Assembly (NCBI GenBank): GCA_050246815.1
Contig: JBFWVI010000030.1
Coordinates: 21,740 to 40,483 of the forward strand
Length of the DNA stretch: 18,744 bases
Direction of reading: 5' to 3'
Source of the DNA: Bdellovibrionales bacterium
GTDB taxonomy: Bacteria; Bdellovibrionota; Bdellovibrionia; Bdellovibrionales; UBA1609
In this document: positions 1,846 to 18,463 of the stretch, one piece after another
Layout: every line of letters starts with the position of its first letter
How positions within the stretch are numbered: position 1 is the first letter of the stretch
Translations under genes and position numbers: made by a program
The notes under the pieces: generated by a model
Told to the model about the DNA's origin: nothing
What the model saw: only the letters and a program-made list of their open reading frames with translations
The model's database searches: none

Positions 1846-2850
1846 TTGCGTTGTCGCGAGTTGGAAGAGTTAGAAGAAATCTTAAGTCGCCGCCCTCGCG
1901 GCGTGAATCACTATGAATTGACGCGGATCGATTTTCGTCAGAATCAATTTCCTATTCGTGTTGTCAGTCTAGGTGAAAAAGGTGCGCCCACTTTGGCCTT
2001 TGTGGCGGGGGTGCATGGTTTAGAGCGCATAGGCTCGGATGTGGTGTTGGCGTATTTAAGAGTTTGTCTGGCGCGCTTAGAGTGGGATTCTGTTTTTCAG
2101 AATTTGCTCACAAAAACCCGTCTGGTTTTCATTCCGGCACTCAATCCAGTGGGGCTGGCGCGAAACACCCGAAGCAACGGTCAAGGTGTAGACCTCATGC
2201 GCAATTCGCCGCTTGATGCTGATGAGCCCGGAGGCTTTCTTTACCGTGGCCATCGTTATTCGTCTTGGTTACCATTTTACCGCGGACCTCAAAATGCACC
2301 TATGCAGGCCGAAGCTTTGGCGCTGGCCAAAGCTCTTGAAGATGAGGTTTGGCCCGCCGATCTTTCTATGGTGATTGATGTGCACTCGGGCTTTGGCGCC
2401 ATTGATCGAGTCTGGTTTCCCTATGCGCACTCGCGTCGCGCCTTTCCTCACTTGGCAGAAGCCTATTGGCTCAAAAATACTTTCGATCAAACATACCCAC
2501 ATCATTTTTACGCAATCGAGCCCATGGCACGCCAATACACTCTGCATGGAGATTTATGGGACTACTTTTATCTGCGACAGCGCGAAGACCACCCGAAACG
2601 GTTGTTTTTGCCTTGGACCTTAGAAATGGGGTCCTGGATTTGGGTCAAAAAGAATCCAGGACAGTTATTTTCCAGTGGCAGCATTTTTGACCCCGTGCGG
2701 CCACATCGGCGTAAGCGGATACTGCGTCGCCATCTGACGTTATTTGATTTTATGCATCGTGTGTTGGCCACGGACCAATCCTGGTGGCATTTATCTGGTG
2801 GGGAGCGCGCTTCTTTGGAGCATCGGGCGCGGGAATGCTGGTATGAGTAA
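1846..2850 (+). CDS. M14-family zinc carboxypeptidase-like protein
   Basis: Zinc-binding GVHGLE (HxxE) and M14 signatures IPALNPVG, RSNGQGVDLMRN, IDVHSG and a late TLEMG glutamate. TTG start preceded by GGGAG. Confidence 0.88.
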   Translation: MRCRELEELEEILSRRPRGVNHYELTRIDFRQNQFPIRVVSLGEKGAPTLAFVAGVHGLERIGSDVVLAYLRVCLARLEWDSVFQNLLTKTRLVFIPALNPVGLARNTRSNGQGVDLMRNSPLDADEPGGFLYRGHRYSSWLPFYRGPQNAPMQAEALALAKALEDEVWPADLSMVIDVHSGFGAIDRVWFPYAHSRRAFPHLAEAYWLKNTFDQTYPHHFYAIEPMARQYTLHGDLWDYFYLRQREDHPKRLFLPWTLEMGSWIWVKKNPGQLFSSGSIFDPVRPHRRKRILRRHLTLFDFMHRVLATDQSWWHLSGGERASLEHRARECWYE

Positions 2851-3592
2851 AACCTGGGTTTTGATGCGGGGGTTGGGTCGCGAAAGCGGACACTGGAGTA
2901 CTTTCGTTAATGCCTTTCAGCAAGCTGTAGCACCCGATCAAGTGATGACTGTGGATCACCCTGGGATGGGTCGTCAGCGCGAACGGGCTGTGCCGAACAG
3001 CGTGACAGCTATGGCAGAAACCGCGCGCACCCAAGTTCCCCGCACTGGATCCTCGTTTATTCTAGTGGGGCATTCCTTGGGTGGAATGGTGGCCCTCGAC
3101 TGGCTTTCGCATCACCCTGAAGAGGTGGCCGGCGTTGTTTTAATCAACACAAGTACGCGGGACACCAGTCCTTGGACTGAACGCTTAGATTTGGCTGCAC
3201 TGCACAAGATGGGGAAAATTTTTCTCGAGCCCTCTGAACGTGAGCGTGAGGAAAAGATCTTACGGCTGGTTAGTCGCGCCCCGGATCGCCATCAAAGCTT
3301 GCTTGCAGAATGGGTGAGGATCGCCCGAGAAAGACCGCCAGCCAAGTTCACTGTTGCTAAGCAATTATGGGCAGCGTCAAAGTTTTCATTGCCTGAAATG
3401 CCCGCAAACCCCCCACCAATTCTTTGCCTAAGCAGTTTGGGTGATGAACTGGTGAACCCAGCCTGCAGCGATCGTTTGGCTAAAAGTTTGAATGCGCCAC
3501 TGAATATGCACCCATGGGCAGGTCACGAAGTGACTCTTGATGATCCACAATGGGTACTGACTCAGGTCCAGAAATGGCGTGAAACCATCTGA
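2843..3592 (+). CDS. Alpha/beta-fold hydrolase (249 aa)
   Basis: Likely start is ATG 2843, overlapping the upstream stop (ATGAGTAA). Oxyanion-region LMRGLG, nucleophile elbow GHSLGG, acid in GDELV, His in AGHEVTLDDP. Confidence 0.9.
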   Translation: MSKTWVLMRGLGRESGHWSTFVNAFQQAVAPDQVMTVDHPGMGRQRERAVPNSVTAMAETARTQVPRTGSSFILVGHSLGGMVALDWLSHHPEEVAGVVLINTSTRDTSPWTERLDLAALHKMGKIFLEPSEREREEKILRLVSRAPDRHQSLLAEWVRIARERPPAKFTVAKQLWAASKFSLPEMPANPPPILCLSSLGDELVNPACSDRLAKSLNAPLNMHPWAGHEVTLDDPQWVLTQVQKWRETI

Positions 3593-3684: not shown

Positions 3685-5124
3685 ATGGGCAACAAGCGCG
3701 CGAGGGGACACGCTTTTTGGGCCGGGTTCTTAACCCTGTTCTTAAGTTTTGTTTTCCACTTTAATGGCGCCGCACAAACGACTGATCTTTCAGTGCCGAC
3801 ATTAAGTGCCTCGGCGAAAACTTTTAGCCAAGCCAGTCTGGAATTTTCGAATTCGCAATTTTTAAGAGCTTCAGAACCTTACTTTCGCGAAGGCGCGAGC
3901 AGTAGTCTGACCTCTTGGAAACTGGGTTGGAAAGCCCGGGCACAACGTCGAGGTTGGTTTGCCAACGTGGATGCTCGAAACGATTATCAATCTGAAGAAG
4001 ATCATCATTACATTAAGCCTTTTGATCTGGCCACAGGTTGGGGCAATGAAAATAACCGCTTTATCTTAGGGCGGCAGCGTCAAGACTGGTCTGTGGCGGA
4101 TGATCTGTGGCGGATTGGAATGTGGCAGCCGCGTTTCACGGATGATCAAATCACCCGTGAAAACGGTGGATTTACCGGGGCCTTCGCAAAATTTGGTAAC
4201 GACGATGCACATCTGTTGTTGTTCGGTTCGCCTTATTGGATTCCGGACACTCAGGCCTCTTTTGAATTGAAAAATCAAAAATTCGTCTCTAAAAACCCCT
4301 GGTTCAAACCCCCCACCAATATTGTCAATTTGGACGGGATTCCCACTGATGTACGCTACAACTTTGATCGGCCCAGCGTTGAAGATGTGATCAAACACGG
4401 TATGGCTGCTGCTCAATTTGAGTATCGCCCCACGACAGTTCACTTTGCGCGTGTGTCGGCAGCTTATAAACCGCTCAACCAATTGATCATTGGATTTCCT
4501 TTGGAATTGCATTTGGAAGACCCTAATTATGCGCAAATTGACGTGAAAACCCGTGTGCTTTATCAGCAGCTGCTCACTTTTGAAGCCGGGGTTCGCGATC
4601 AAGATGGGTACACAGCATGGTGGTCGGTGACCAGTGATCGTCCTTTCCGAGACAATCCTCCACCGGAGTGGACAACACAAGAGGTCAAAGACGCTGTGAT
4701 TGGTTCGGTGTATGTGGGGCGAGACTTGCGCGGAAGTGGACCGAACGCCACTCATGCCTACATTAGTTATTTGCGAGTCGAGGGTGGGGATGCGCCTGAT
4801 CGTGGCGAGTTCAAGGGGACAAAATCACTGTTTGAGCCTCGTTATATGTTTCAAGATGCCGTGCAGGTTGGATTGCGTCACACGGCGCCGCTGTTGACGC
4901 GCAAATGGCTTGCTCACTTCAGTGGCAATGTGATTTACGATTTTGCTCAACACGGTGTTATGGCTTCGGCGAAAATCGCACAGCCATTTGGCAAAGCCTG
5001 GTCGGCGCTGCTGTCTGGGGATGTCATAGGGCTTGTCGACAAGTCGGGCCGCGTTCAAGAAGGATTTATTTCCACCTATCGCGCCAATGATCGAGTCTCA
5101 GCTGGAGTGCAATATGTATTCTGA
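3685..5124 (+). CDS. Predicted outer-membrane beta-barrel protein of unknown function (copy A)
   Basis: Signal-peptide-like N terminus MGNKRARGHAFWAGFLTLFLSFVFHFNGAA, alternating amphipathic strands, and C-terminal beta-signal ...VSAGVQYVF. Start uncertain (ATG 3667/3679/3685). Paralogous to 13428..14879. Confidence 0.75.
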   Translation: MGNKRARGHAFWAGFLTLFLSFVFHFNGAAQTTDLSVPTLSASAKTFSQASLEFSNSQFLRASEPYFREGASSSLTSWKLGWKARAQRRGWFANVDARNDYQSEEDHHYIKPFDLATGWGNENNRFILGRQRQDWSVADDLWRIGMWQPRFTDDQITRENGGFTGAFAKFGNDDAHLLLFGSPYWIPDTQASFELKNQKFVSKNPWFKPPTNIVNLDGIPTDVRYNFDRPSVEDVIKHGMAAAQFEYRPTTVHFARVSAAYKPLNQLIIGFPLELHLEDPNYAQIDVKTRVLYQQLLTFEAGVRDQDGYTAWWSVTSDRPFRDNPPPEWTTQEVKDAVIGSVYVGRDLRGSGPNATHAYISYLRVEGGDAPDRGEFKGTKSLFEPRYMFQDAVQVGLRHTAPLLTRKWLAHFSGNVIYDFAQHGVMASAKIAQPFGKAWSALLSGDVIGLVDKSGRVQEGFISTYRANDRVSAGVQYVF

Positions 5125-7363
5125 CATCAAGATGACTTTGGTCGGTTTGATTGCGGCGATTTTTCTGCTGGGGTGTGCGGGGGAAAATGAGTTCTCTACT
5201 GTTCCGCCAGATGTGAAATTTGATAGCCCTAAATTCCAATGTTTGAGCAAGGCGGACGAAGTTTTAACGGACTACTTAAATGGTAACTTGACCAATAGCG
5301 AGGTGCAAAGCTTTTGGAATTGTCTGGATATGGCCGTAGTTCAGTTTGTTAAATTTGTCCGTGGCAGCGAGGGGCAAAATTATAAACCCCAAGAGATGGC
5401 CAAATTTTTGGACACCTATTTTTTAGATAATCGTGGTTTGGCACAACACTCTGAACTTTTAGCTGAGTTTATGGAGATCAAGCGCCTCTTTGTGGGCGGT
5501 TCCTTAGAACGGGTCAGTCACACGGACCTTTACTATCGTACACGCGAATTGTTGATGGAGTTCAAATCCATCACGATGGAATTGAATCCTCATATGAAGA
5601 CGCTTCACCTTGGGCTTTCTGGTGAAAACAGTAAAGCATTGCTCGGTAGCGAAGTTGAGGCGGCAACTCTCGCTTTGCAAAGAGCAGGTGAGAGGTTGGG
5701 GCATTTATTTAAGAAGGGTAATTATTTTTATTCATTCAGTCACTTGCAGGCTCTTTTAACTGAACTTGAAAAATTTGTGCAAAAAACCAGTCCTGATTTT
5801 ACGCTTGCAAACACTCGCAAGTACATCCCGCTGTTTTCGGAGTTCAAAAATTTGGTGGTCGCCCCGCCTTACGATCTGATTCGCAATGAAGACTGGAATC
5901 GCCTACTTGAATCGATGAGCAGCATTTTAGGTTGGATTGTCCAATATCGGTTCTACATAGAAGATGAGGATTGGGGACAGGGAGACTCTTTTGAAGCTTT
6001 GTCGCGCATAGCACGAGGAGCCTTATCAGAACTGGAGAAGGGTCTTGATAAGCAAGACAAGAAAGAGTTCAGCTTCATCGATCTGGATCGCCTAGTGGTG
6101 CAGTTGGATGAGCTTGATTTGCTTCCTTTGGATTTTGATGCGGAAACGGGAAAAAGTATTCTGCGGCGCTTGGGCGAGCGAGTACTGGCGCCTCAAAGTG
6201 AAGTTGGCACAGGGTTGAATCAGGCGGATCTGGTCGCTTTGCGACAAGAAGTGTTGCGCTGGATTGAGGCGCAACACTTCTTAAACCAGGTCGCCAAAGA
6301 TTCGATGCCCGTATTTGAAGAGACATTCAGCAGCGAACAAATGTCGGTCGAGGCTCAGGATGCCGCTCCCGATCCGGCAGCAGAAATGCGCATGTTGATG
6401 CGAACCCGTTGGCCTTTGTTACATGACAATAAAAATCGATTGGTGTTTTCAGCCGCAACATTTGCCGGACAGTATGATCAAGGCAGTCTGAGCACTTTAA
6501 ACTGGCAGCGCGCTTTGATGCGAGCCTTGATGAGGGGTTATGCCAAGCAGACTAGTCCGGATGGGGCAACCGGGTTAAGTGGTGACGAGTTGAGCGTTCT
6601 GCTTCAAGACTGGCATGTTTTGGCCGAAAAAATGGGATTATTCGAGCCTGGTGAGGCTGAGAGTATGGCTAAAAAGATCTTTATGGAAGCCAACTTGTTT
6701 ATGCCTTCTAGTAATGGTGACGAACGTATCGATTTTATCGAAGCGGTACAGTATATGGCCTATGCTATTTCGGGATTAAATAGTGCGGGTGATATTGTGG
6801 ACACCATCGAAGAGCAGTGCCAGGATGCCATTGACAAAAAGAAAGTGGTGGCCGCTTGTTTACGAAGTCAACTTTATGGCCAGCGTCATTCATTCTTGGG
6901 CAATTTCCCTTTCTTGCTGCAATTCGTTGGTGAGAACGAAGCGCGTTGGCGGCAGTTTGCAAATATGATTGAAAACACAACACGCAACGGCGTTTCGGAT
7001 AAACCGTTCAGCAAAGGCGATATCGTCGAAATGATTGTGCTGCTTCATTACATTGAAACCTTCTATGGCACATACGACGGTAACAAAAATCAGTTGATCA
7101 ATGTGGATGAAACCCTAAATGCATTTCCTGTTTTCCGTCGTTCGCTGAACGAAATCGTCAAAAACTCATTCGGTATCACGATGAGTGGAGATGACCTGAA
7201 AGGGCTACTGACCTATTTGTTCAATTTCGGTAAGCCGCCTCAGTCCACATTTGGCGGTGTGCTGAAGTTCTTGAATTGGCGCTGGACTCCCGAAGCCTGG
7301 AATTACGATGTGGATCGTTTGCGTGTGATACAGATTCTAGCCGAACTCAACGCCAGCCGCTAA
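5114..7363 (+). CDS. Large alpha-helical lipoprotein with EF-hand-like loops, unknown function (copy A, 749 aa)
   Basis: ATG 5114 with GGAG 6 nt upstream. Signal peptide MYSDIKMTLVGLIAAIFLLG-C with lipobox LLGC. EF-hand-like 12-mers SSNGDERIDFIE and DGNKNQLINVDE. Paralogous to 14869..17523. Confidence 0.8.
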   Translation: MYSDIKMTLVGLIAAIFLLGCAGENEFSTVPPDVKFDSPKFQCLSKADEVLTDYLNGNLTNSEVQSFWNCLDMAVVQFVKFVRGSEGQNYKPQEMAKFLDTYFLDNRGLAQHSELLAEFMEIKRLFVGGSLERVSHTDLYYRTRELLMEFKSITMELNPHMKTLHLGLSGENSKALLGSEVEAATLALQRAGERLGHLFKKGNYFYSFSHLQALLTELEKFVQKTSPDFTLANTRKYIPLFSEFKNLVVAPPYDLIRNEDWNRLLESMSSILGWIVQYRFYIEDEDWGQGDSFEALSRIARGALSELEKGLDKQDKKEFSFIDLDRLVVQLDELDLLPLDFDAETGKSILRRLGERVLAPQSEVGTGLNQADLVALRQEVLRWIEAQHFLNQVAKDSMPVFEETFSSEQMSVEAQDAAPDPAAEMRMLMRTRWPLLHDNKNRLVFSAATFAGQYDQGSLSTLNWQRALMRALMRGYAKQTSPDGATGLSGDELSVLLQDWHVLAEKMGLFEPGEAESMAKKIFMEANLFMPSSNGDERIDFIEAVQYMAYAISGLNSAGDIVDTIEEQCQDAIDKKKVVAACLRSQLYGQRHSFLGNFPFLLQFVGENEARWRQFANMIENTTRNGVSDKPFSKGDIVEMIVLLHYIETFYGTYDGNKNQLINVDETLNAFPVFRRSLNEIVKNSFGITMSGDDLKGLLTYLFNFGKPPQSTFGGVLKFLNWRWTPEAWNYDVDRLRVIQILAELNASR

Positions 7364-7399
7364 AGATCGTAAATGATTCGCCAGCGCGCCCCTTCCATT

Positions 7400-7629
7400 T
7401 TTTAAGCCCATTTTTGCAAGTTTGACTTTCCTCCATCTATGCGAGGGCTTTTCGTACCGCCATCCTGGCGGTCCGAGCGAGATTTGGGCGGAGAAGATTT
7501 CTCTCTTTATTTTTTGAGAAAAATTCAATAAATCGGCCCCACAAATCTTAAGTCTTTTGCGCTGGACGCGCAAAAGGGAACCCTCGCAGGGATGGAGAAA
7601 AAGCAAACTCGCAAAAATCGGCTGTAAAA
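7400..7629. other. Long branched fold-back structure (structured ncRNA or ssDNA element)
   Basis: Closing helix of about 42 bp: TGCGAGGG 7440-47/CCCTCGCA 7581-88; CTCCATC 7431-37/GATGGAG 7591-97; AGTTTG 7419-24/CAAACT 7604-09; ATTTTTGC 7410-17/GCAAAAAT 7611-18; AGCC/GGCT; TTTTA/TAAAA. It encloses three arms: ACCGCCA-TCC-TGGCGGT 7456-72, AGATTTG 7480-86/CAAATCT 7542-48, and CTTTTGCGC-TGGAC-GCGCAAAAG 7554-76. Confidence 0.8.
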
Positions 7630-7721
7630 GCAAAAAGTGCCGGGAACCAAGAAGCTGTTCAATTTTTAAAAGCAAGACGAGCTGTTGAAGTTTAAATGCG
7701 GGATTGGCTGTTTAAGCAAGG

Positions 7722-7741
7722 GTAGGAGTAACTCGTACTCC
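7722..7741 (+). repeat. REP-like GTAG-footed hairpin upstream of the transposase
   Basis: GTAG (7722-25) directly at the foot of the palindrome GGAGTA-ACTCG-TACTCC (7725-41). Only one copy is seen in the window. Confidence 0.5.
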
Positions 7742-7879
7742 AATTAAAAGGGCCAGGGTCTTTAGGGCTTGAGTGGCAAAAAACAATAAAGCAGAACCGA
7801 CCAACTTAAAACCTAAAGCAAAAAATACATCCGCAATGTTCGTTTTTGACCTTTTTGCGGCTTTGTTGGACCTTCGGTC

Positions 7880-8482
7880 ATGTCCAAAAAAGCACCGCAA
7901 AAACGAAAAGGCCAACTGCCCTTACTCCAACAAAAATACCCACTTCAATACGGCGGAGTGCTTCGAACAAAGGCCAAAAACCGAGGGTTTAGACCGCTTT
8001 CTTCAAAAGAATCCATGCACGTGGTTTTACGCTCCTCCCTGGCCAAAAAAGAATGGTCCTTTCAGCACAAAAGAAACCGCAAACGATTGGCTGAATTTAT
8101 CAATCGGTTTTCAGCCAAGAAGGGCATCGAACTGATCAAGGTGGCCAATGTGGGTAACCACTTTCATTTTCATGTCAGGATCCCGAATCGCACCCTTTAT
8201 AAGGCCTGGATTCGGGGTTTAAGCTCGGCCATTGCGGTGATGGTGGCGGGTCATGAGGGTTTAAGGCGAATCAAGGCCCAAGCCAAAGCCAAGCTCACCT
8301 CGCCAAAGACTAAAGTGAGTCGTTTTTGGGATTACCGCCCTTTCAGCCGAGTGGTGCGTGGACTGCGGGCTTACCTCAGCCTTAAAGACTACGTTGAAAT
8401 CAATGAGCTTGAGGGGCTGGGAGCCCCTCAATATGAAGCCGTCATCTTGGTTAAATATGGCCAGACTTTTAATTCGGCCTGA
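7880..8482 (+). CDS. tnpA: HUH-superfamily Y1 tyrosine transposase (IS200-like/RAYT-like), 200 aa
   Basis: N-terminal MHVVLRS strand, HUH motif VGNHFHFHV, FWDYRPFSRVV block and catalytic-type helix LKDYVEIN (YxxxN). Highly basic. A second copy lies at the window end. Confidence 0.85.
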   Translation: MSKKAPQKRKGQLPLLQQKYPLQYGGVLRTKAKNRGFRPLSSKESMHVVLRSSLAKKEWSFQHKRNRKRLAEFINRFSAKKGIELIKVANVGNHFHFHVRIPNRTLYKAWIRGLSSAIAVMVAGHEGLRRIKAQAKAKLTSPKTKVSRFWDYRPFSRVVRGLRAYLSLKDYVEINELEGLGAPQYEAVILVKYGQTFNSA

Positions 8483-9847
8483 TTAGCCGCGAAGATGCCA
8501 GGCTTTTGGCTGCAAGAAGGTCTGAATTCCATAAGTAGAAAGTGTTGTGCCGATGCCGGAGTGTCCGCGGCCAGACCATGGAAGACGTGGGCTCACGCGG
8601 TCGCAGCAGTTCCAGTAAACCGACCCTGCGTTGACCTGCGCTAAGATTTTTTGTGCCCGTTCGCGGTCGGGAGTGTAGACCCCAGCGGTCAGACCATAAG
8701 CTGTGTCATTCATGAGGCTTAGCGCCTCTTGGTCATCTTTCACTTTTTGAATTCCGATGATGGGGCCAAAAGATTCTTCGCGCATAAGTTCCATGGTGTG
8801 ATTGACGTTGCTGAAAACAGTGGGGGCAAAATAATAGCCTTTACGTTTCAATCGTTCGCCTCCACAAAGCAGCTTGGCTCCTTTGGCTTTGGCGTCTTGA
8901 ACTTGTCTTTCCAGAGTCTGGATTTGAGCCTCACGAGTCAATGGCCCGATATAAGTGTCGTCGCTGGTTGGGTCACCGACTTTAAAGCCCTGGACTGCGC
9001 TGGCGAATTTGTCGACAAAAGTGTCATAGATTTTCGCATGGACATAGATTCTTTCTACCGAGCAACAGCTTTGACCCGTATTGTAGAATGCCCCGTCGCT
9101 TAAACTGTCCACGGCACTGGCCACGTCCGCGTCTTCACATACATAGGAGGGGTCTTTGCCGCCCAGTTCCAACTGAATTTTGATCATTCGACCTGCCACA
9201 GTTTCTGCAATTTTTTTTCCAGTGCCATAGGATCCAGTAAAGAAGACCCCGTTAATCGGCTGCTTTAATAGTTCAGCACCAATGACTCCTTCGCCGATCA
9301 AAATTTGAAAAGCATCTGTAGGGATTCCGCTTTGGTGTAATCGTTCGGTGATGGCAAGGCCTGTCAGGCTAGAAAATTCAGATGGTTTGTACAAAACCAC
9401 ATTACCAGTTAAAAGTGCCGGAATAAAAACGTTGGACCCCACGAAATAGGGGTAATTCCAGGCCGAGATGTTGGCGATCACTCCTAGGGGTTCATGATGA
9501 ATCACTTCGTCCATGCTTCCATCTTTAAAAACGGCTTCACCTTGGAGTGCTGAAGCCACTTTGTCCAAAAAAAAGTCAATGCGGCCTAAGGTGCCGTTCA
9601 CTTCATTTATCGACTGTTTCAATGGTTTTCCAACCTCTGAAGTTAAAATTTGGGCTAGCTCGGTTTTGTCTTTTTCAAGACGTTCTCGAAATTGACGAAT
9701 GGCTTTGATTCGCGCATTCAGTGGTGTGGCAGCCCAATCTTTTTGAGCGATCTTTGCTTTATTAAACTTTTCTACTACTGTGGTGGCTGTATCCGCTTTT
9801 AGTTCCTTAATGATTTCGCCCGAGGCGGGGTTGATGACTTTGAGCAT
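8483..9847 (-). CDS. NAD(P)-dependent aldehyde dehydrogenase
   Basis: Motifs ISAWNYP, YKPSE, FTGSYGTG, LELGGKDP (catalytic Glu), NTGQSCCS (catalytic Cys), EESFGP and YGLTAGVYT. Confidence 0.95.
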   Translation of the reverse strand: MLKVINPASGEIIKELKADTATTVVEKFNKAKIAQKDWAATPLNARIKAIRQFRERLEKDKTELAQILTSEVGKPLKQSINEVNGTLGRIDFFLDKVASALQGEAVFKDGSMDEVIHHEPLGVIANISAWNYPYFVGSNVFIPALLTGNVVLYKPSEFSSLTGLAITERLHQSGIPTDAFQILIGEGVIGAELLKQPINGVFFTGSYGTGKKIAETVAGRMIKIQLELGGKDPSYVCEDADVASAVDSLSDGAFYNTGQSCCSVERIYVHAKIYDTFVDKFASAVQGFKVGDPTSDDTYIGPLTREAQIQTLERQVQDAKAKGAKLLCGGERLKRKGYYFAPTVFSNVNHTMELMREESFGPIIGIQKVKDDQEALSLMNDTAYGLTAGVYTPDRERAQKILAQVNAGSVYWNCCDRVSPRLPWSGRGHSGIGTTLSTYGIQTFLQPKAWHLRG

Positions 9848-10611
9848 TAGCTTTTCCTTCGTTGCGCGATTTGCAGAAATTCCTGCAGCATGGGTTTGGA
9901 GTCAAAGAGAGAAAAATCTTTAGGGTTTTGAAATTCGGGGTGCCACTGCACGGCTGCAACATATGGACCTTGATCACGACGAATAGCTTCGATAAGGCGG
10001 TCGTCCACTGAGCGGGCTTCAATCGAAAATCCGGGCGCCAAGTCTTTGATTGCTTGATGATGCACGCTATTGACCTTGGCTTGTTTAATGCCAGGGTAAA
10101 GCTTCGCCATTTTTGATTCAGGTGAAATTTCAATCTTATGAAAGTTTTGGTCGTAAATTTCCCAGTTGCGATGTTCAAGAGACCCTTGCAGTTGGGTTTT
10201 GATGTCTTGATACAAAGTTCCCCCAAAAGCCACGTTTAAAAGTTGCAGCCCTCGGCAAATTCCTAGAACGGGTTTGTTTTGCAAGCCAAATTCATTAACC
10301 AAAGCGATTTCGTAGCGGTCGCGCACAGCATCGCCTGACCATTCGGGTTTAAGGGGAACTTCTCCGTAAGAAGAGGGCGCCACGTCCGACCCGCCTTGTA
10401 AAATCAAGCCATCTAAGTCCTGCACAAGGGTGGACAGTGAAATAGCCGTATCCGGCCCGAGTGAGGGAATCAAGTAAGCTAGGATATTTTGTCGCTGAAG
10501 CCAGTGCCCGACATCTTCGACCAAATAAAGGAGGGTTTTCCCTTTGAAGACAGGGCGCTGGGGATCCGCGTGAAAAAAACAAGAGCTAATGCCGATGCGA
10601 AGCACGTTCAT
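9847..10611 (-). CDS. Gamma-glutamyl-gamma-aminobutyrate hydrolase family (peptidase C26, PuuD-like class I amidotransferase fold)
   Basis: DGLILQGGSDV, nucleophile PVLGICRGLQLLNVAFGGTLYQD, VNSVHHQAI and VQWHPE (His-Glu). Its stop overlaps the ALDH start by 1 nt. Confidence 0.92.
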   Translation of the reverse strand: MNVLRIGISSCFFHADPQRPVFKGKTLLYLVEDVGHWLQRQNILAYLIPSLGPDTAISLSTLVQDLDGLILQGGSDVAPSSYGEVPLKPEWSGDAVRDRYEIALVNEFGLQNKPVLGICRGLQLLNVAFGGTLYQDIKTQLQGSLEHRNWEIYDQNFHKIEISPESKMAKLYPGIKQAKVNSVHHQAIKDLAPGFSIEARSVDDRLIEAIRRDQGPYVAAVQWHPEFQNPKDFSLFDSKPMLQEFLQIAQRRKS

Positions 10612-10619
10612 CCTTTGGC

Positions 10620-11756
10620 TTAAAAAGCCTCGCTAAAGATAGCTTTGAAGTCTTCACGGGTCACGGCGCGTGGGTTTGATAGGTGACAAATATCTTGTAC
10701 GGCTAAGTCCACCAATTTATCGATTTTGTCTTTAGTGACGCCAGCTTTGCTTAAATTCTGGGGGATATTTGTTGCTGTCTTTAGATCTGTTAGCCACTGT
10801 AAGAACCCTTGAGGAGTCCGGTCTTTTAAGCCAGCGGTGACAGCCATATTTTTAAAGCGTTCGGCTGCTACGCCGGTATTGATTTTTAAGGCGTAGTCGA
10901 TCATCACACCATTGGCCAAACCGTGATGCATGTCGACTACCGTTCCCAATGCATGAGCGCAAGAGTGAGTGACACCTAAGCCTTTTTGAAAGGCGATGGC
11001 TCCCATCATTGAGCACATCATCATTTGACTGCGTGCCTCAATATCCTGGGGTTCTTTTACGGTTTTCACTAAGCTTTGTGAGGCCAGGCGAATTCCTTCG
11101 AGGGCAATACCATCGCAAATAGGGTGATAACCTTTTGCCAAATAAGCTTCCACGCAGTGGGTGAGCGCATCCATACCTGTGGCGGCGGTCACTGGGCCAG
11201 GAAGATTAAGCGTCAGCTCGGGATCAGCAAAAACGGCTTGTGCCAAAAGTTTTGGGGAGAAAATGATTTTTTTTACATGAGTTTGATCATCTGAAATCAC
11301 TGAGCTTCGCCCCACTTCGCTGCCTGTGCCGCTGGTTGTGGGCACTGCAATCCAGTACGGGATAGGGCCATCGACAGAGAGCGCCCCAGGCTTTTCATCT
11401 TCATAATCAAATAGATCACCTGGGTGGGTGGCCATCAGTGCGATCGCTTTAGCCACATCAAGTGCTGCGCCACCGCCAAGACCAATGATTGCATCTGCAT
11501 CGTGACCCTTAAAGGCTTTTACACCTTCGTTGACCTGTGACTTTACAGGATTGCCCCAAATGCCCGAAAAAGTTTGCACTTGCAGGCCGACGTCTTTTAG
11601 TGACAATTCGATTTCGCGGCACAAGGGGAGTGCGGCGACTCCTTTGTCCGTGACAATCAAGGGACGCTTAATATTTTTGCCTTTCAAAAAATCAGGCATT
11701 TGTTTGCGCACGCCGGCGCCGAAATGGATCAAAGTTGGAAAGCTGAAGCGATACAT
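10620..11756 (-). CDS. Iron-containing alcohol dehydrogenase
   Basis: IGLGGGAALDVAK and VPTTSGTGSE, with metal ligands in GMDALTHCVE, HSCAH and MHHG. Confidence 0.95.
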   Translation of the reverse strand: MYRFSFPTLIHFGAGVRKQMPDFLKGKNIKRPLIVTDKGVAALPLCREIELSLKDVGLQVQTFSGIWGNPVKSQVNEGVKAFKGHDADAIIGLGGGAALDVAKAIALMATHPGDLFDYEDEKPGALSVDGPIPYWIAVPTTSGTGSEVGRSSVISDDQTHVKKIIFSPKLLAQAVFADPELTLNLPGPVTAATGMDALTHCVEAYLAKGYHPICDGIALEGIRLASQSLVKTVKEPQDIEARSQMMMCSMMGAIAFQKGLGVTHSCAHALGTVVDMHHGLANGVMIDYALKINTGVAAERFKNMAVTAGLKDRTPQGFLQWLTDLKTATNIPQNLSKAGVTKDKIDKLVDLAVQDICHLSNPRAVTREDFKAIFSEAF

Positions 11757-11768
11757 CGGAAAGTCTCC

Positions 11769-13145
11769 TTATATGATTTCAAAGTAACGTTGCATTTCCC
11801 AGTTAGTCACTGAATCTTGGAACTGGCGCCATTCCCACAAACGAGTGTTCACAAAGTGGTCGACAAATTGATCACCCATCAGCTCGCGCGCAAGTTTTGA
11901 TTCTGAGAGTCTCATTGTGGCTTCATACAGATTGCGGGGCAAGCTTTGCGCATCTTTTGCCAAGTAAGCGCTGCCCTGCACCGGCGTGTCTTTAAGTGCC
12001 AACTGCTTTCGGATGCCATACAGGCCACTTGCCACCGAGGCCGCAATGGCCAAGTAGGGGTTTACATCCGAGCCTGAAATGCGCGTTTCCACTCGAGTTG
12101 ATTTGCCGCTTCCAGGGATCACACGAAACGCCACCGTACGATTGTCCAGGCCCCAAGTGACTTTGGTGGGCGCCCAATAACCTTCAACCAAGCGCTTGTA
12201 GCTATTTACCGTCGGTGCATAAAAAGGCAAAAGTTCAGGCAGGCAGCGTAATTGGCCTGCAACATAACTTTTGAATAAAGGGCTCATGCGGTGGGGGTCT
12301 TTTTCTGCAAAGAACAGATTCTTGCTGCCCTTTTTATCCCATACGCTTTGATGAATGTGACCACTGCAACCAGGCAGTTTGGCGTGCCACTTGGCCATAA
12401 AGCTTGGCATGATGCCAAAGCGATAGGCGATTTCTTTGGTCGCTGTTTTAAAAAGAACAGCTCGGTCGGCGGATTCCAAGGCGTCAGAGTACAGGATTGC
12501 GGCTTCGTAGACTCCGGGCCCAGTTTCGGTGTGCAATCCTTCCAGTGGAATTCCGAACTGTAACATTTCATCCATCAAAGCAGTGAAAAACGGCTGGTTC
12601 AAAGTGGCACGCAGAAGGCTATAGCCAAACATGCCAGGTGTGATCGGTTCGGGATTTTGACAATTTTTTTGCGCAAAGCTTTGTGGGGTTTCTTTGAAGT
12701 TAAACCATTCGAATTCCATACCGCTTTTGATGGTGTAGCCTTCGTCTTCAGCGATTTTTAAAACACGCTTTAAGACCTGACGAGGGCAAATCGGCAAAGG
12801 TTTGCCCTCGTCAGTTGTGAAGTCTCCAAGAAAAAAATGTAACTGATTTTCCCAAGGAATTTCTCGATGTGTGTTTAAATCAATTTTTGCAACGGCGTCT
12901 GGGTAACCTGAGTGCCAGCCGGTGTAATGGCTGTTGTCATAGCAGACGTCGGCCGAATCCCAACCAAAAACCACATTGCAAAAACCAAAGCCGCCGTCGG
13001 CTGCAGATAAAAATTTATCCTTGTGTAGATATTTGCCGCGCACGACACCATCTAAGTCAGTCACTGCGACTTTGATTTTGTCGAACTTCGAGTCTCTAAT
13101 TTTTTTGATAATTTGCGAAGCTCGATCGGTCTGTTTGTTGGCCAT
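11769..13145 (-). CDS. Glutamine synthetase-like gamma-glutamyl-amine ligase (PuuA/GlnA4-like)
   Basis: DLDGVVRGK, GMEFEW, HTETGPGVYE, FMAKW...GCSGHIHQS, APTVNSYKRL, WGLDNRT, RVETR and NPYLA. RBS AGAGGGG. It heads an operon of catabolic enzymes rather than an ntr/glnA context. Confidence 0.92.
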   Translation of the reverse strand: MANKQTDRASQIIKKIRDSKFDKIKVAVTDLDGVVRGKYLHKDKFLSAADGGFGFCNVVFGWDSADVCYDNSHYTGWHSGYPDAVAKIDLNTHREIPWENQLHFFLGDFTTDEGKPLPICPRQVLKRVLKIAEDEGYTIKSGMEFEWFNFKETPQSFAQKNCQNPEPITPGMFGYSLLRATLNQPFFTALMDEMLQFGIPLEGLHTETGPGVYEAAILYSDALESADRAVLFKTATKEIAYRFGIMPSFMAKWHAKLPGCSGHIHQSVWDKKGSKNLFFAEKDPHRMSPLFKSYVAGQLRCLPELLPFYAPTVNSYKRLVEGYWAPTKVTWGLDNRTVAFRVIPGSGKSTRVETRISGSDVNPYLAIAASVASGLYGIRKQLALKDTPVQGSAYLAKDAQSLPRNLYEATMRLSESKLARELMGDQFVDHFVNTRLWEWRQFQDSVTNWEMQRYFEII

Positions 13146-13427
13146 ATTCCCCTCTTTGTAACATGCGAATTCGAATGGTCAGCAGGCTGCTTCATAGGTT
13201 AAGCTTGTGTCAATTGCGGGAGGCTTGAAAAAAATACCATGCTGTCGACATCCTATCCTAAACGCGCTCACTTTTGAGGCCAATTGGATGCGTTCTGGCG
13301 GGTTGAAAAGGGGATTTTTCACTCTCCTTGTAAAGCCTTCTGCTCTTACGAACACCCATTGTGGAACTAGAGTCAAAACCGTAAAATTTGACCCTTGATC
13401 ATAGCCGTGAGGACGGCTCAGGTGGTT

Positions 13428-14879
13428 ATGGCTTTAAGGACACCAGGAGCTTTGCTGCGACTGCGCGGCTGGGCTGCCTTTTCAAATTCTGTTCTTAGAC
13501 GACTCGGCTGTTGCATTTTGGCTACGGTGGGGTTTTGCTCGGTCGGGACTTGGGCCAATACGGACTTGCAATTGCAATTGCTGCAAAGCCAGTATTTGAG
13601 TGACACTCAGAATCGTGTCCAAAGTGACGCCTATTCTTCTTTCGGTGTGCGCCTAAAACATCAAAATGCCCCAGAAAGCCGCATGGTTCATGGTTTAGAC
13701 TTGTTGGGGCTTGCCTCCGCTGATGGCACTGAACAAGCTTATGTGGCGGCGCCTGAGTTTTATTGGGGTCTGAATGCTAACATTCAAAAACTTCCCGGCA
13801 AGCTTATCCTTGGGCGAAAGCGATTCGCTTGGAGTCATTTTGACGAGGAGTGGAATCTGGGGATTTGGCAGCCCTATGTTCGTTGGGATTATTTGCATCC
13901 TTTGCCGCAGGGTTTAAGTGGGGCCTTTTTGTCTTTAGGTGAAGAGGGACCTGTGCAAGTTACGGCCTTTGCGACGCCATTTTTTCTGCCAGATCAGGGG
14001 CCTCAGTTTGAAGTTATTGATGGGCAATTCAATTCCAGCAACCGATGGTTTCGTCAGCCCACGAATAAACACATGGTGATTAATCAGGATCGTCGTTTGA
14101 ATTATGAGCTCGATCGCCCCTCAGAGGGGGACGTGGTGATGAATGCGGGTTATGGGCTGTCTGTGTTGGTTGGAAGCGAAAAAGAAGGGCCGTGGTTTAA
14201 AGCCTCTCTGGCGGATAAGCCCATAAATCAAATGCACATTGGTATCGAGGGGTATCATAGTATCGCAAGGCTGAATCGATTTTTGGAATCCGTGGCGGTG
14301 GTGCACCCTGTGGTTGCTCGTCACAATGTCATGACGCTTGAAGCAGGTTATTCGGCTCCGGATTTTTTTGGCTGGATATCCTTAACGGAAGAGCGCCCAA
14401 AAGATCCACAGATGCCTGACGAGTGGGAAGAAGCTTCGCTTTACGCCTCACGCTTCATAGGTATGACTTTGTCGCATCGTTTGCCTTGGCAGGGGTGGCG
14501 TAGTCATTGGCTGAAGTATGGCGCAATGACGATGAGTGAGCGTTTGCCGCCAGAGCGTTTGGATGACCCTGAGGACAATCTGGAGTCTTCGCTTGATCGA
14601 TATCCATTTCGCGAGGTTTTAAGTTTTGAATGGACCGCACCTTTTGTAAATCGAGCAAGTCATCGTTTGGATTTTGGTTTGCGCTACCTGTACTCAGTGC
14701 CCGAGAAGGGGTCCCTGCTTTCGGCCAAGCTTGAATTGATGTGGCGGCGCAACACTCGTTGGGACTTAGGCGTGGATGTGCTGGGCACCGAAGGTCCCTC
14801 GAGCGTGGAAGATCGTGGGCTGATGAGTCTTTACCGAAATAATGATCGCGTGATGGGGGGTATGACGTATGTCTTTTAG
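13428..14879 (+). CDS. Predicted outer-membrane beta-barrel protein of unknown function (copy B)
   Basis: Signal-peptide-like segment ...RRLGCCILATVGFCSVGTWA and C-terminal beta-signal ...VMGGMTYVF. Many blocks are shared with copy A. Start uncertain (TTG 13395, or ATG 13428 with AGGTGG upstream). Confidence 0.75.
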   Translation: MALRTPGALLRLRGWAAFSNSVLRRLGCCILATVGFCSVGTWANTDLQLQLLQSQYLSDTQNRVQSDAYSSFGVRLKHQNAPESRMVHGLDLLGLASADGTEQAYVAAPEFYWGLNANIQKLPGKLILGRKRFAWSHFDEEWNLGIWQPYVRWDYLHPLPQGLSGAFLSLGEEGPVQVTAFATPFFLPDQGPQFEVIDGQFNSSNRWFRQPTNKHMVINQDRRLNYELDRPSEGDVVMNAGYGLSVLVGSEKEGPWFKASLADKPINQMHIGIEGYHSIARLNRFLESVAVVHPVVARHNVMTLEAGYSAPDFFGWISLTEERPKDPQMPDEWEEASLYASRFIGMTLSHRLPWQGWRSHWLKYGAMTMSERLPPERLDDPEDNLESSLDRYPFREVLSFEWTAPFVNRASHRLDFGLRYLYSVPEKGSLLSAKLELMWRRNTRWDLGVDVLGTEGPSSVEDRGLMSLYRNNDRVMGGMTYVF

Positions 14880-17523
14880 TTCGACATCACGTTTTTTTCT
14901 TCCTTTGGCGTTGATAATTGCCGTGGCTGCTTGTGGCTTGAAGGTCGGAGAAAAAGCTCCGGTTGACAATCCAATCACGATTGGCGGATCGGGCTTTTCG
15001 TGCTTATCCCACATCACTGAGTACGCCGAATCTTTTGTGGATGCTCGCTTGAATGAGGCCGAGATTCGTCGATTTATGGGCTGCATTCGTTTTTCATTCG
15101 AAAGTTTCGCTAAGCACGCACGGGGACTTGAGCGCAACACATATAAGCCTGAAGAGATTCGCGACTTTCTTCACGAATATTTTCTGCAAGACAAAAGTAT
15201 TACCAATAATCTTTTAACAGATTTTATGGTGATCAAAAAAACCTTGGTGGGTGGAACTGTTGAGCGGGTCACTCGTGAGGATTTAAAACAAGCCATCGAT
15301 TTTTTAACCTTCATCGAAGAGCAAGCGATCAAGTTAAATCCGTACATGAAGATTTACAATTTCAGTATCGGTCGGCTTTGGGCTCAGCAGGATAAAGAGT
15401 CCGAACCTGAAGTGGAGATTGCAGTGCGCACTTTGCGCGAAGTGGGGATTGCCATTGGTGAACGATTGGCGCGGGCCAATGCGCCTTACCCCATGGAACA
15501 CATGGAATCCTTCATGCGTGAGTTTAGGCAGTTTGCTGGCTGGGAAAGAATTTTTACCAACGCCCATGCCACAGAAAGTTGGACTGCGTTTTTGAGTGCG
15601 TACAAGTCGGTGATTGCGGGCAGTGATGGCGTGCACATACGACCAAAAGATTGGCCGCCTCTTTTAAGCTCAGCGGCAAGTATTTACGGGATGTCGCTCA
15701 AGGCTCGCTATACGCGCGAAAAGAAATCCATGATGTATGGCGAAGGTCTGCAGGGTGTGATGCTGCTAGCCAATGATGTGGTTCGAGTCATGCAGGAAGC
15801 CGTGGATCAGCAGCCGCAAAAAGTAATTCGCTTTGAGCAGTTTGACCGCTTGATTGATGCAATGCAACCTTTGGGTTTGATGCCACGTGTTCCATCCGCG
15901 GATATCAGTATGGAGCGTGCCATTCGACCCGGCAGTTTCAAAGGGGCTTTGCGCGCTTTGCTGAACCGCATTTTTGGTGATTCTAAGACGCCCTGGCGAC
16001 AACGGCAGGGGGAAGGCCTTGACCGAATTGTCATTCAGCGAGCGATGGCCGAATTTTATCGCTGGGCAGATGTGCAAAAGTTTTTAGATCGCACTTTTGC
16101 GCCAAATGATAAAGAGGGCGTCGCGGGCCAAACCGTAGAAACCCTATCTGAGCGATTGGGGCCGGTTGGCGCCAGTCAAAATTTATTAAAACTTTTTGGT
16201 GAAAAGTCGAGCATCGCCAGCCCCGATGATGTTTTGGGTTTAGTTCGGATGATGGAACAAAGCCTAAGACCTCTGTTTCGGCCGGGTGAAGATCAAATTT
16301 TCTTAACCGAGTCTAGCTTACTGGCCAAATACCAATTGGTGCACGGCTTTCATAATCTCTCCATGATGAATCTTTCGCGGGCAGTTGTGGGGTTGGTCGG
16401 CCTTGGCTATAGCACTTACCGCGGCAAGGTGGGGCTGTTTGATGGCGGCATCACCGACGAAGAAATGCAGGCCTTTTACATGGATTTTCGTGAAATTGGC
16501 GTCGACATGCAGCTCTTTGACCCCCGCACGGATAACGCAGGTTACCGGTCTTATCAAGAAGCCAATATGTTCACTTACACCGGCAATGGTCTACAGCGTT
16601 TAAGCGAGGTGAAAGACCCCAAAGACGCCATGATGAGTTATCCGGAGGGTATGGAGTATCTGCTGTTCATTTTGTCGGGCGGAGCGATGGGACGTGCGAT
16701 TTATACCGGTATGATGTCTGAGCACGGCTTATGTGAGTCAGTCAGTCGAAATGCTCCAATCAGCGTGCACGGATATCGAATGGTCGAGCGCAATTGCTTT
16801 CGGCAGAATCTTATGCAGATTTTGTTGCCCCGCTTGGGAACCATGCCAACGATGCGCGCCGAGCTGGAAAAGGCCAATCCGCAGGAAAAAGTGGCAATGT
16901 CCGAAAATTTAATGGCCACAATTTTTTCTCCGGAATTCAGTGATCCTAAGTTTATTGAGTGGCACGAAATCACCACTATCGCGGTGATCATGCACTATAC
17001 AGAATCAGTAATGACTCGTTACAATAGTGATCAAGACACGTACTTAAATGCCTCTGAGGTTTGGAAGGCCTATGAAACCTTCAAGGTGTATATGCATCAA
17101 ATGACCGTCGACAAATGTATGCAGTACGTAGGTTCATTCTCAAATCCTGATAGTCCAGCCGCACGCATCGAACAGCAGGCCATGAAGATCTACGCTTGGA
17201 GCGATATGAAAGAGGCTCTAAAAAAATGGATCGCCCAACGCGGATGCAACAGTATTCCTGAATTTGTTTCGCAGGCTGTTTTTGCTCATATTGTGAACGA
17301 GGGGCGTATTCCCTCCTCGATTTGGGAGGTCGATCTGATGCCGCGTCAGATTTGTGTGGTTGATATGAGCTTCAAAGACTGGCCCTTACTTTTTGATCGA
17401 CTGCCTGATCTGCGCGCTTGTGTGGGTATCGATTTTAAAGTGGATCGTGCGGCTCTGTTGCGAGTTTTTGCTGCTTTGGTAAAAGCCAGTTCAGACACCG
17501 CTCAAAAAAGCGATTTGAAGTGA
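14869..17523 (+). CDS. Large alpha-helical lipoprotein with EF-hand-like loop, unknown function (copy B, 884 aa)
   Basis: Signal peptide MSFSSTSRFFLPLALIIAVAA-C (lipobox VAAC), with GGGGGG upstream of the ATG. EF-hand-like NSDQDTYLNASE. Paralogous to 5114..7363. Confidence 0.82.
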   Translation: MSFSSTSRFFLPLALIIAVAACGLKVGEKAPVDNPITIGGSGFSCLSHITEYAESFVDARLNEAEIRRFMGCIRFSFESFAKHARGLERNTYKPEEIRDFLHEYFLQDKSITNNLLTDFMVIKKTLVGGTVERVTREDLKQAIDFLTFIEEQAIKLNPYMKIYNFSIGRLWAQQDKESEPEVEIAVRTLREVGIAIGERLARANAPYPMEHMESFMREFRQFAGWERIFTNAHATESWTAFLSAYKSVIAGSDGVHIRPKDWPPLLSSAASIYGMSLKARYTREKKSMMYGEGLQGVMLLANDVVRVMQEAVDQQPQKVIRFEQFDRLIDAMQPLGLMPRVPSADISMERAIRPGSFKGALRALLNRIFGDSKTPWRQRQGEGLDRIVIQRAMAEFYRWADVQKFLDRTFAPNDKEGVAGQTVETLSERLGPVGASQNLLKLFGEKSSIASPDDVLGLVRMMEQSLRPLFRPGEDQIFLTESSLLAKYQLVHGFHNLSMMNLSRAVVGLVGLGYSTYRGKVGLFDGGITDEEMQAFYMDFREIGVDMQLFDPRTDNAGYRSYQEANMFTYTGNGLQRLSEVKDPKDAMMSYPEGMEYLLFILSGGAMGRAIYTGMMSEHGLCESVSRNAPISVHGYRMVERNCFRQNLMQILLPRLGTMPTMRAELEKANPQEKVAMSENLMATIFSPEFSDPKFIEWHEITTIAVIMHYTESVMTRYNSDQDTYLNASEVWKAYETFKVYMHQMTVDKCMQYVGSFSNPDSPAARIEQQAMKIYAWSDMKEALKKWIAQRGCNSIPEFVSQAVFAHIVNEGRIPSSIWEVDLMPRQICVVDMSFKDWPLLFDRLPDLRACVGIDFKVDRAALLRVFAALVKASSDTAQKSDLK

Positions 17524-17614: not shown

Positions 17615-18463
17615 GTGAATGATTTTTATCTGCATACCATTTTGCGCGGGATCGCTGTTCCCATGGTGGTGGGCGGAGCTGTTTATATCTTGGCACGCGT
17701 AACACCGACTTTTATCCGCGACACATTGCGCGGGGCAGGTTTAGCGGCGGCAGTTTTGTTTTCCTACATCCTGTTGCTGGGTATGCCGGACTGGCCGCTG
17801 ACGGGCAGTCCAAAGGGCGTGGTTTCTGCACTGTTGGTGGCTTCTATATGGCCATTGCTGGAGGCTATGGGTACGCGTCGCCTTTGGTGGAAGCGTTTTG
17901 CCTTGATCGCTGCGGTCAACTTGGTTTGTTTGCGGCCACTGGTCGAATCCGCCTGGTCGTTGCAGAGCAGTCTCACTATTTTATTAGGTCTAACTTCGAC
18001 TGTTGTTCTGATTTGGTTTGCTATTGATCGAGGAAGTCAACAGATGCAGCCCTCTGCCGTGTTGGCAGCGTTAGCGGTAATATCTGGCACGAGTGCCGCA
18101 TTTATGTGGCTGACGGATCATGGTGGTTTAGCAAAGTTGGGTGGAGCATTGGCGGCCGCCCTAGCGATAATGACTCTGCTGTCCTTAATTCGGGCCCTAC
18201 GAGCACAAAGAGAACTCAATTCGGTGGCCGTGATCGCACTGACAGCAATCTGGTGCACTTATGCATTCTACACGGATATTTCATGGACAAAAATGATTTG
18301 GCTTGCAGGGCCGTTCATATGGTTTGTGATTCGCGATATTTTAAATTGGTCAGGGGGCACTCCAGTCAAAGACACGATCACAACAATTCTTTTGACTCTG
18401 CCGTCAGGCTTGTGGGGTCTGTGGCTTGTTTATAATAAGGCCATTGAAACGCAAATTTACTAA
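17615..18463 (+). CDS. Polytopic inner-membrane protein of unknown function
   Basis: 282-aa ORF with GTG start and GAGGT upstream. Roughly 9-10 hydrophobic segments with short basic loops. No motif recognised. Confidence 0.75.
   Translation: MNDFYLHTILRGIAVPMVVGGAVYILARVTPTFIRDTLRGAGLAAAVLFSYILLLGMPDWPLTGSPKGVVSALLVASIWPLLEAMGTRRLWWKRFALIAAVNLVCLRPLVESAWSLQSSLTILLGLTSTVVLIWFAIDRGSQQMQPSAVLAALAVISGTSAAFMWLTDHGGLAKLGGALAAALAIMTLLSLIRALRAQRELNSVAVIALTAIWCTYAFYTDISWTKMIWLAGPFIWFVIRDILNWSGGTPVKDTITTILLTLPSGLWGLWLVYNKAIETQIY

Follow-up and report, generated by a model that had tools for sequence, protein, structure and literature searches.

The window analysed here is a stretch of 18,744 nt from Bdellovibrionales bacterium (GCA_050246815.1, contig JBFWVI010000030.1, positions 21,740–40,483 of the forward strand). 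It carries, twice, a pair of genes encoding a predicted outer membrane (OM) beta-barrel and a large lipoprotein (Table 1). An earlier sequence-only reading had described the two pairs as diverged but colinear, and this was borne out: the four open reading frames (ORFs) lie where it had placed them, and the motifs it quoted were found in the translations. The two barrels are 28% identical over 369 columns (E 4e-32) and the two lipoproteins 23% over 742 columns (E 6e-53). According to tblastn, the genome contains exactly two barrel copies and two lipoprotein copies, those of the window. Pfam and NCBIfam gave no passing match for any of the four proteins, in agreement with the earlier view that the pair does not map to an already characterised system. 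A database record for the same gene as barrel 1 has 481 aa, which would place the start perhaps 6 nt earlier. Named homologues of the pair come from Bdellovibrionales, with the neighbouring locus tags K1X29_07175 and K1X29_07180; a further homologue search returned no additional named protein.

Table 1. Features of the two gene pairs and of their surroundings in the window.
Feature	Coordinates	Strand	Description
Barrel 1	3685..5124	+	Signal peptide, predicted 18-strand OM beta-barrel (~residues 47–479), C-terminal Y-V-F
11-nt overlap, pair 1	5114..5124	+	Lipoprotein 1 ATG within the terminal Tyr-Val codons of barrel 1
Lipoprotein 1	5114..7363	+	749 aa, ATG at 5114, lipobox Cys21, 21-aa linker; three related ~110-aa helical repeats (58–396) and C-terminal EF-hand domain; Cys pairs Cys43/Cys70 and Cys569/Cys582
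Degenerate EF-hand loop, lipoprotein 1	6707..6742	+	Residues 532–543, after the EANLF motif
Canonical EF-hand loop, lipoprotein 1	7076..7111	+	Residues 655–666
Barrel 2	13428..14879	+	Paralogue of barrel 1; true start uncertain
Lipoprotein 2	14869..17523	+	884 aa, lipobox Cys22, same 11-nt overlap with barrel 2
EF loop of lipoprotein 2	~17023–17058	+	
M14 zinc carboxypeptidase and alpha/beta hydrolase	1846..3592	+	Pfam assignments; upstream of pair 1
Inter-pair stretch, ~6 kb	7880..13145	.	Y1 transposase-like gene and four-gene metabolic operon; outside the module

The upstream protein was modelled with AlphaFold2 from an alignment of 32 sequences (predicted local distance difference test, pLDDT, 89.6; predicted TM-score, pTM, 0.84). 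Counted from the secondary structure of the model, 18 long amphipathic strands begin at residue 47 and end with the terminal Phe, in keeping with the transmembrane barrel proposed earlier. The strands start directly after the leader, and the model contains no plug, POTRA or TPR domain, as the sequence-only reading had also held. Phe is the last residue in 130 of 148 sequences and Tyr the third-last in 133 of 148. With its signal peptide, even strand number and terminal aromatic-x-aromatic motif, the protein is predicted to be an OM beta-barrel assembled by the barrel assembly machinery (BAM). The last strand of OM barrels of this class ends in the periplasm, so the loops after odd strands would face outward. 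The long conserved loops of fixed length all follow odd strands (medians 31, 57, 28, 25 and 17 residues; 137 alignment rows); in the same rows the periplasmic turns have 2–7 residues and are mostly unconserved. Loops 4 and 5 bear extra beta-hairpins in the model. Loop 3 is long and invariant; in barrels of this class it constricts the pore.

The best structural matches of the barrel were other 18-strand channels, at 9–13% identity. OccAB3 gave Z 22.3 (root-mean-square deviation, rmsd, 3.8; 311 aligned), OccD2 Z 22.2, AlgE Z 21.2 (rmsd 4.2; 326 aligned), chitoporin Z 20.9 and Wzi Z 18.8, and the top TM-score, 0.51, was obtained for AlgE. A PDB sequence search returned no match for either single protein or for the barrel profile. 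PF06980 (DUF1302) matched 0 of 32 barrel members at E 0.1, a test passed by the true DUF1302 gene of the same genome. The wider barrel profile weakly detected that DUF1302 barrel (locus L175; hhalign probability 94%, E 1.5e-7, C-terminal 176 columns only), and the DUF1302-type barrels so detected (L175 and L060) adjoin LolA-like and MMPL genes. The cluster at L175:1714-11465 (G000:C4), with MMPL, chalcone-isomerase-like, LolA-like and DUF1302 barrel genes, holds the nearest named relative of the barrel. Because the profile similarity to DUF1302 is only weak and PF06980 matches no member, the barrel, as modelled, is a separate family within the OprD/AlgE/DUF1302 structural group.

In the ESM Atlas the barrel matched Bdellovibrionota clusters titled ‘transposase family protein’ or ‘hypothetical’, one of them with 10% DUF1302. 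The ‘transposase’ label, which is also attached to the database entry WP_155724054 and to Bd2415, is wrong: no DDE, HUH/Y1 or serine recombinase family matched, and the protein is a predicted secreted barrel.

The AlphaFold2 model of the lipoprotein (112 sequences; pLDDT 91.9, pTM 0.87) is all-helical and shows some twelve helix-short strand-helix motifs. Foldseek gave no match to this model at E 0.001 and VIA-align none at Z ≥8. The best partial structural matches were nearly all EF-hand proteins, aligned to the C-terminal half at Z ≤7.8; they came from penta- and multi-EF-hand proteins such as the calpain small subunit, sorcin, ALG-2 and FCaBP, the top values being Z 7.8 (rmsd 4.0, 165 aligned), 7.6 (3.6, 173) and 7.2 (3.7, 164). 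Such a Z range alone may reflect a common arrangement, and the EF-hand loop sequences provide independent support. Loop 655–666 fits the pattern D-x-D/N-x-D/N-G-x-hydrophobic-x-x-x-E between helices, with Asp at position 1 in 95% and Glu at position 12 in 97% of 137 rows. The degenerate loop 532–543 retains Gly in 89% and Glu at position 12 in 96%. The lipoprotein profile matched ALG-2 (E 9e-4), the Pfam EF-hand family gave weak matches in 14 of 33 lipoprotein members, and the ESM Atlas returned EF-hand clusters only, at ≤0.81. Judged by its loop sequences, the lipoprotein carries an EF-hand motif of the calcium-binding type, with one canonical loop. No TPR family of Pfam matched any of the 33 lipoproteins; SusD, AlgK and Slam-cargo folds were not among the listed matches of the whole 749-residue model, a search of the undivided chain that does not speak against such folds. 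The architecture is an unusual one, a bacterial multi-EF-hand lipoprotein.

The lipid-anchor Cys21 is invariant or nearly so. A lipobox pattern was present in 135 of 156 homologues, most of the misses having odd start calls, and between the lipid Cys and the first disulfide-type Cys the linker measured 19–23 aa in 114 of 133 lipoproteins; both Cys pairs are conserved. Profile comparison within residues 58–396 matched the first repeat to the second with 96% probability (E 1e-9) and the third with 76–79%; BLAST self-comparison did not reveal the repeats. Homologues gain repeats in blocks of ~225 residues (1–5 matched stretches), and lengths range from 698 to 1,668 aa among the best 150 of 2,160 clusters, with 1,682 aa at locus L040. 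At L042:8725-11405 the lipoprotein gene is broken into ORFs of 142 and 761 aa, by a frameshift or an assembly error.

The distribution of the pair was surveyed in 301 genomes of the phylum, 262 of them high-quality. The barrel profile matched 194 genomes and the lipoprotein profile 193; each was present in 187 of the 262 high-quality genomes, and a wider barrel profile reached 204 genomes, weak matches included. Tallies per family were equal for the two proteins except in f13 (2 barrels, 3 lipoproteins) and f15 (2 and 0), and both f15 barrels have a lipoprotein partner when the wider profile is used. In families f12, f13, f15, f20 and f27 most genomes gave no match to the pair; f20 is the sole histidine-prototroph family (14 of 14 genomes) and has the pair in 0 of 14.

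Adjacency was counted for 151 distinct barrel ORFs at loci L031–L174, selected from the listed barrel matches. The regions fetched for distant families had been placed with both matches known, so the rate applies to this selection. A script placed the lipoprotein next to the barrel in 148 of the 151 (136 co-directional downstream, 12 head-to-head), and a wider fetch added a 149th, also head-to-head; of the two remaining barrels, the first is truncated at the end of its locus and the second, a distant one, lies beside a LolA-like gene. The pair is a large phylum-wide family, a two-gene unit in most genomes sampled. None of the three outcomes that the sequence-only reading had named as refuting it was seen. 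Of the term ‘orphan’, which the sequence-only reading had applied to the barrel, only the lack of a fitting curated family stands; the pairing it had wished to see surveyed turned out to be close to general. Head-to-head pairs (L051, L052, L054, L055, L059 and L176; mostly family f19) are separated by gaps of ~60–220 nt, in which a candidate bidirectional promoter may lie. In the window's own family, 8 loci have the two pairs in direct tandem; in the window itself they are ~6 kb apart. Neighbours otherwise vary among 45 clustered regions: the M14 peptidase and the hydrolase recur upstream in 8 and 9 of them without being universal, synthase, MMPL and LolA-like genes do not recur next to the pair in these regions, and the 40 most frequent neighbour clusters include no synthase.

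The two genes are also tied together by an overlap. In both pairs of the window the lipoprotein start lies inside the codons for Tyr-Val-Phe-stop of the barrel, a feature that, like the EF-hand loops, had escaped the sequence-only reading. Among 141 barrels, counted after ten incomplete, off-length or unpaired ones had been dropped, an in-frame ATG occurs exactly 11 nt before the barrel end in 108 of 129 co-directional pairs and in 0 of 12 divergent pairs. The terminal Tyr codon is TAT in 113 of 119 cases, compared with 58% elsewhere, although related sequences are not independent counts. The two proteins are probably co-translated in matched amounts.

FastTree phylogenies of 41 pairs, obtained with long-branch warnings, gave a correlation of 0.90 between barrel and lipoprotein distances, and the true partner assignment outscored all 2,047 within-genome swaps. 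The proposal that each lipoprotein keeps its cognate barrel is sustained by this result. Covariation over 137 paired rows (mutual information and Gaussian models) yielded artefacts, the within-chain controls failing to recover strand contacts. Complex prediction for barrel 1 (residues 45–479) with lipoprotein 1 (residues 21–585, the last 164 residues excluded) scored 0.01 against a mark of 0.32 in a run that had no controls, a value that speaks neither for nor against contact.

Counterparts in Bdellovibrio bacteriovorus were assigned by gene order alone. In B. bacteriovorus s4 (L071) the order is peptidase, hydrolase, barrel, lipoprotein, small gene and dCTP deaminase, which matches Bd2418, Bd2417, Bd2415, Bd2414, Bd2412 and Bd2411 of strain HD100, where Bd2415 is labelled ‘putative transposase’ and Bd2414 ‘EF-hand domain-containing’. 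The HD100 counterparts are, by this order, Bd2415/Bd2414 and Bd2365/Bd2364, the second pair being placed between Bd2366 and Bd2363. In the supplement of PMC2797640, Bd2364 (2.2/1.8-fold), Bd2365 (2.4/1.8-fold) and Bd2414 (1.8/1.7-fold) are up at 30 min in prey and are listed as members of the 240-gene predatosome; the flanking genes Bd2363 and Bd2366 are flat at that time. The supplement of PMC12546842 gives the Bd2414 protein as +1.0 log2 at 3–4 h, and Bd2365 protein was not found among the rows listed in two tables. We infer a link of the pair to the intraperiplasmic stage from this HD100 expression, as assigned by gene order.

By the same order, Bd2418 and Bd2417 correspond to the M14 peptidase and the hydrolase and are 7–12-fold up in host-independent growth, unlike the pair. 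The second pair of the genus lies near LPS (lipopolysaccharide) heptosyltransferase and Kdo transferase genes (L036:13515-15321) and, judged by gene order, next to the tonB/agl cluster Bd2368-2377. A ‘transposase’ of the 109J Tn-seq table was considered as the barrel and rejected, its neighbours marking it as a different gene.

The explanation that we place first, with somewhat less than even confidence, is that channel and lipoprotein act as one dedicated unit, the lipoprotein serving as a lid or arm on the outer loops and passing substrate during establishment and growth in prey. The barrel would be an 18-strand OM channel, and the lipid-anchored, all-helical EF-hand protein would dock on its outer loops 4–5, where, stabilised by calcium, it could capture substrate and hand it to the channel. 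Such a unit may act while the predator establishes itself and grows inside the prey, and the two paralogous pairs may overlap in function. Its parts differ in strength: a physical complex of barrel and lipoprotein is probable, a cell-surface position of the lipoprotein is slightly favoured, and a role in uptake rather than a purely structural one is weakly indicated.

Several observations weigh against this explanation. Tree congruence and co-occurrence are also expected from an inherited operon or simple operon duplication, and loop 3 conservation may be a fold feature of the barrel class. AlgE and DUF1302, the closest precedents for the barrel, work with partners in the periplasm. At L053:6912-9113, and for a second copy in L058 (9674-12436), a lipoprotein gene stands with no barrel of its own beside it. 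With histidine auxotrophy taken as a proxy for a dependent lifestyle, several auxotroph families gave no match to the pair (f12, f13, f15 and f27 being mostly without it), so its presence does not just follow such a lifestyle. In the HD100 data, Bd2415 is outside the predatosome listed in PMC2797640 (1.2-fold, P 0.15); in the PMC12546842 supplement its protein is down 0.8 log2 at 3 h by imputed values, against the rise of Bd2414, and Bd2364 protein is flat and then at −0.5 log2. The four 109J genes, again identified by gene order, have fitness W 0.9–1.7 under four predation conditions in the supplement of PMC6561027, so single insertions are viable and not predation-defective in the host-independent background; the authors of that study note that redundancy can mask pathways.

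A periplasmic position of the lipoprotein, under the barrel as with AlgK/AlgE or DUF1329/DUF1302, where it would be a scaffold or conduit moving lipid or polymer and its repeat number would set the reach across the periplasm, seems rather doubtful. The AlgE/DUF1302-like barrel fold fits it, as do the weak profile detection of DUF1302-type barrels beside LolA-like and MMPL genes, the varying repeat number (1–5 matched stretches) and the fact that lipoproteins face the periplasm by default; one copy, moreover, has an LPS heptosyltransferase gene beside it in 7 regions and, in 4 regions, a gene of 434 aa that corresponds to waaA by gene order. It is opposed by the short, mostly unconserved periplasmic turns, by the lack of a recurring synthase, MMPL or LolA-like gene in the 45 regions and by the absence of a TPR family match in the 33 lipoproteins. 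The translocator-and-cargo idea of the sequence-only reading, taken here as an exporter that threads its unfolded lipoprotein outward, where calcium would fold it into an adhesin or sensor, with no other substrate for the barrel, is improbable. A single barrel per lipoprotein, coupled translation, cognate trees, a constant 19–23-aa linker long enough to thread the barrel, EF-hand loops and Cys pairs would all suit such cargo. However, the model has no TPR, POTRA or other cargo-receiving domain, the long invariant loop 3 would narrow the pore as it does in this barrel class, a catalytic exporter would need no matched translation, and the fold is that of substrate channels (OccAB/OprD, AlgE, chitoporin) and not of a known protein translocator.

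We consider it very unlikely that the two proteins only share a pathway, as an ancient co-regulated operon of a porin and a periplasmic calcium buffer or sensor that act separately and form no stable complex. The discordant trends of Bd2414 and Bd2415 in the protein tables and the existence of solo lipoproteins speak for it, but linkage persists through inversion to head-to-head orientation in 13 loci, and the two genes are present or missing together while their neighbours otherwise change freely. A bolder form of the dedicated channel–lipoprotein unit is unlikely as well. The pair would then represent a new class of OM machine, a TonB-independent channel with a calcium-switched helical arm whose length is set by repeats, which senses or feeds on the prey envelope and is kept in matched amounts by a start codon hidden in the beta-signal of the barrel. 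If this were true, redundancy of the two paralogous pairs would account for its having been missed by genetic screens.

Other features of the window were noted as well. A Y1/RAYT-like transposase gene (7880-8482; Pfam Y1_Tnp E 1e-4, slightly below cut-off) has the end of a second, inverted copy at the contig end (18573-18744), 99% identical over 172 nt; with 13 tblastn matches in the genome, spread over 12 contigs and in several cases lying at a contig end, it is a recently active element. The operon at 8483-13145 (− strand) encodes a glutamine-synthetase-like protein, an iron alcohol dehydrogenase, a peptidase C26 amidotransferase and an aldehyde dehydrogenase and resembles a gamma-glutamylation amine-catabolism set. 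It is probably an insertion, since the pairs on either side of it are tandem in relatives. A 282-aa, very hydrophobic membrane protein (17615-18463) has no Pfam match and is single-copy in the genome. Promoter and terminator scans gave signals at chance level or below, and no tRNA was found.

As far as searched, the pair is undescribed and a variant among barrel-plus-lipoprotein systems. Searches of the open literature found no relevant paper naming Bd2414/Bd2415, Bd2364/Bd2365 or the four UniProt ids (subscription papers lay outside this search), and topic searches listed no paper on the pair. The main text of PMC11656739 has none of the terms for the pair, although its supplementary lineage-specific families may include these genes, and the locus tags are absent from two supplementary files of PMC10769870. 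It is largely unsettled by what means Bdellovibrio-type predators acquire material from their prey and reshape their own envelope there; PMC2797640 gives 174 of its 240 predatosome genes as hypothetical. Three such genes, identified by gene order, are joined here into a two-gene unit conserved across most of the phylum, the ‘transposase’ label is corrected, and a predicted fold is assigned to both proteins.

Among known systems, DUF1302 (PF06980) with DUF1329/LolA-like partners likewise combines an 18-strand barrel, with OccAB and AlgE as top structural hits, and a neighbouring envelope protein, according to PMC13499233. Our barrel differs in its sequence family, with weak profile similarity to one DUF1302 barrel and no PF06980 match, and its partner is a helical EF-hand lipoprotein rather than a LolA-like protein, with no MMPL gene alongside; an adjacent LolA-like/DUF1329 gene occurs only at the distant barrels L060 and L175. 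AlgE shares the 18-strand barrel (TMq 0.51; Z 21.2) and stands next to an all-helical lipoprotein, AlgK; its fit is tied with OccAB/OprD within ~1 Z. Identity is at the 9–13% level, however, the partner here is EF-hand-like without a TPR family match, no synthase gene recurs, and the barrel gene comes first, followed by a lipoprotein gene with overlapping start. The OprD/OccAB, chitoporin and LamB channels are the best fold matches (Z 18–22), but there is no sequence family match, loops 4 and 5 here bear the extra hairpins, and these channels are not known to have a dedicated lipoprotein partner. For the lipoprotein, the closest partial matches are penta- and multi-EF-hand proteins, aligned with the C-terminal half at Z <8; unlike them it is a bacterial lipoprotein of 700–1,700 aa with mostly degenerate loops and disulfide-type Cys pairs.

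SusCD/BtuBG, in which a barrel gene is likewise followed by a cognate lipoprotein gene, provides the working analogy for the channel-and-lid explanation, and Slam/type XI secretion likewise links a barrel gene to a lipoprotein gene. Both had been offered as precedents by the sequence-only reading and fail as such on strand number, TPR and plug. SusC is a 22-strand TonB-dependent barrel with a plug, whereas the barrel here has 18 strands and none, and the lipoproteins are unrelated in Pfam. Slam has an N-terminal TPR domain and a 14-strand barrel, and its cargo is a handle plus beta-barrel; here the barrel has 18 strands, no TPR and no Pfam match, and the lipoprotein is all-helical. By analogy, the pair resembles SusCD or AlgE/AlgK in its presumed working, but it falls outside both, as it does outside Slam and DUF1302.

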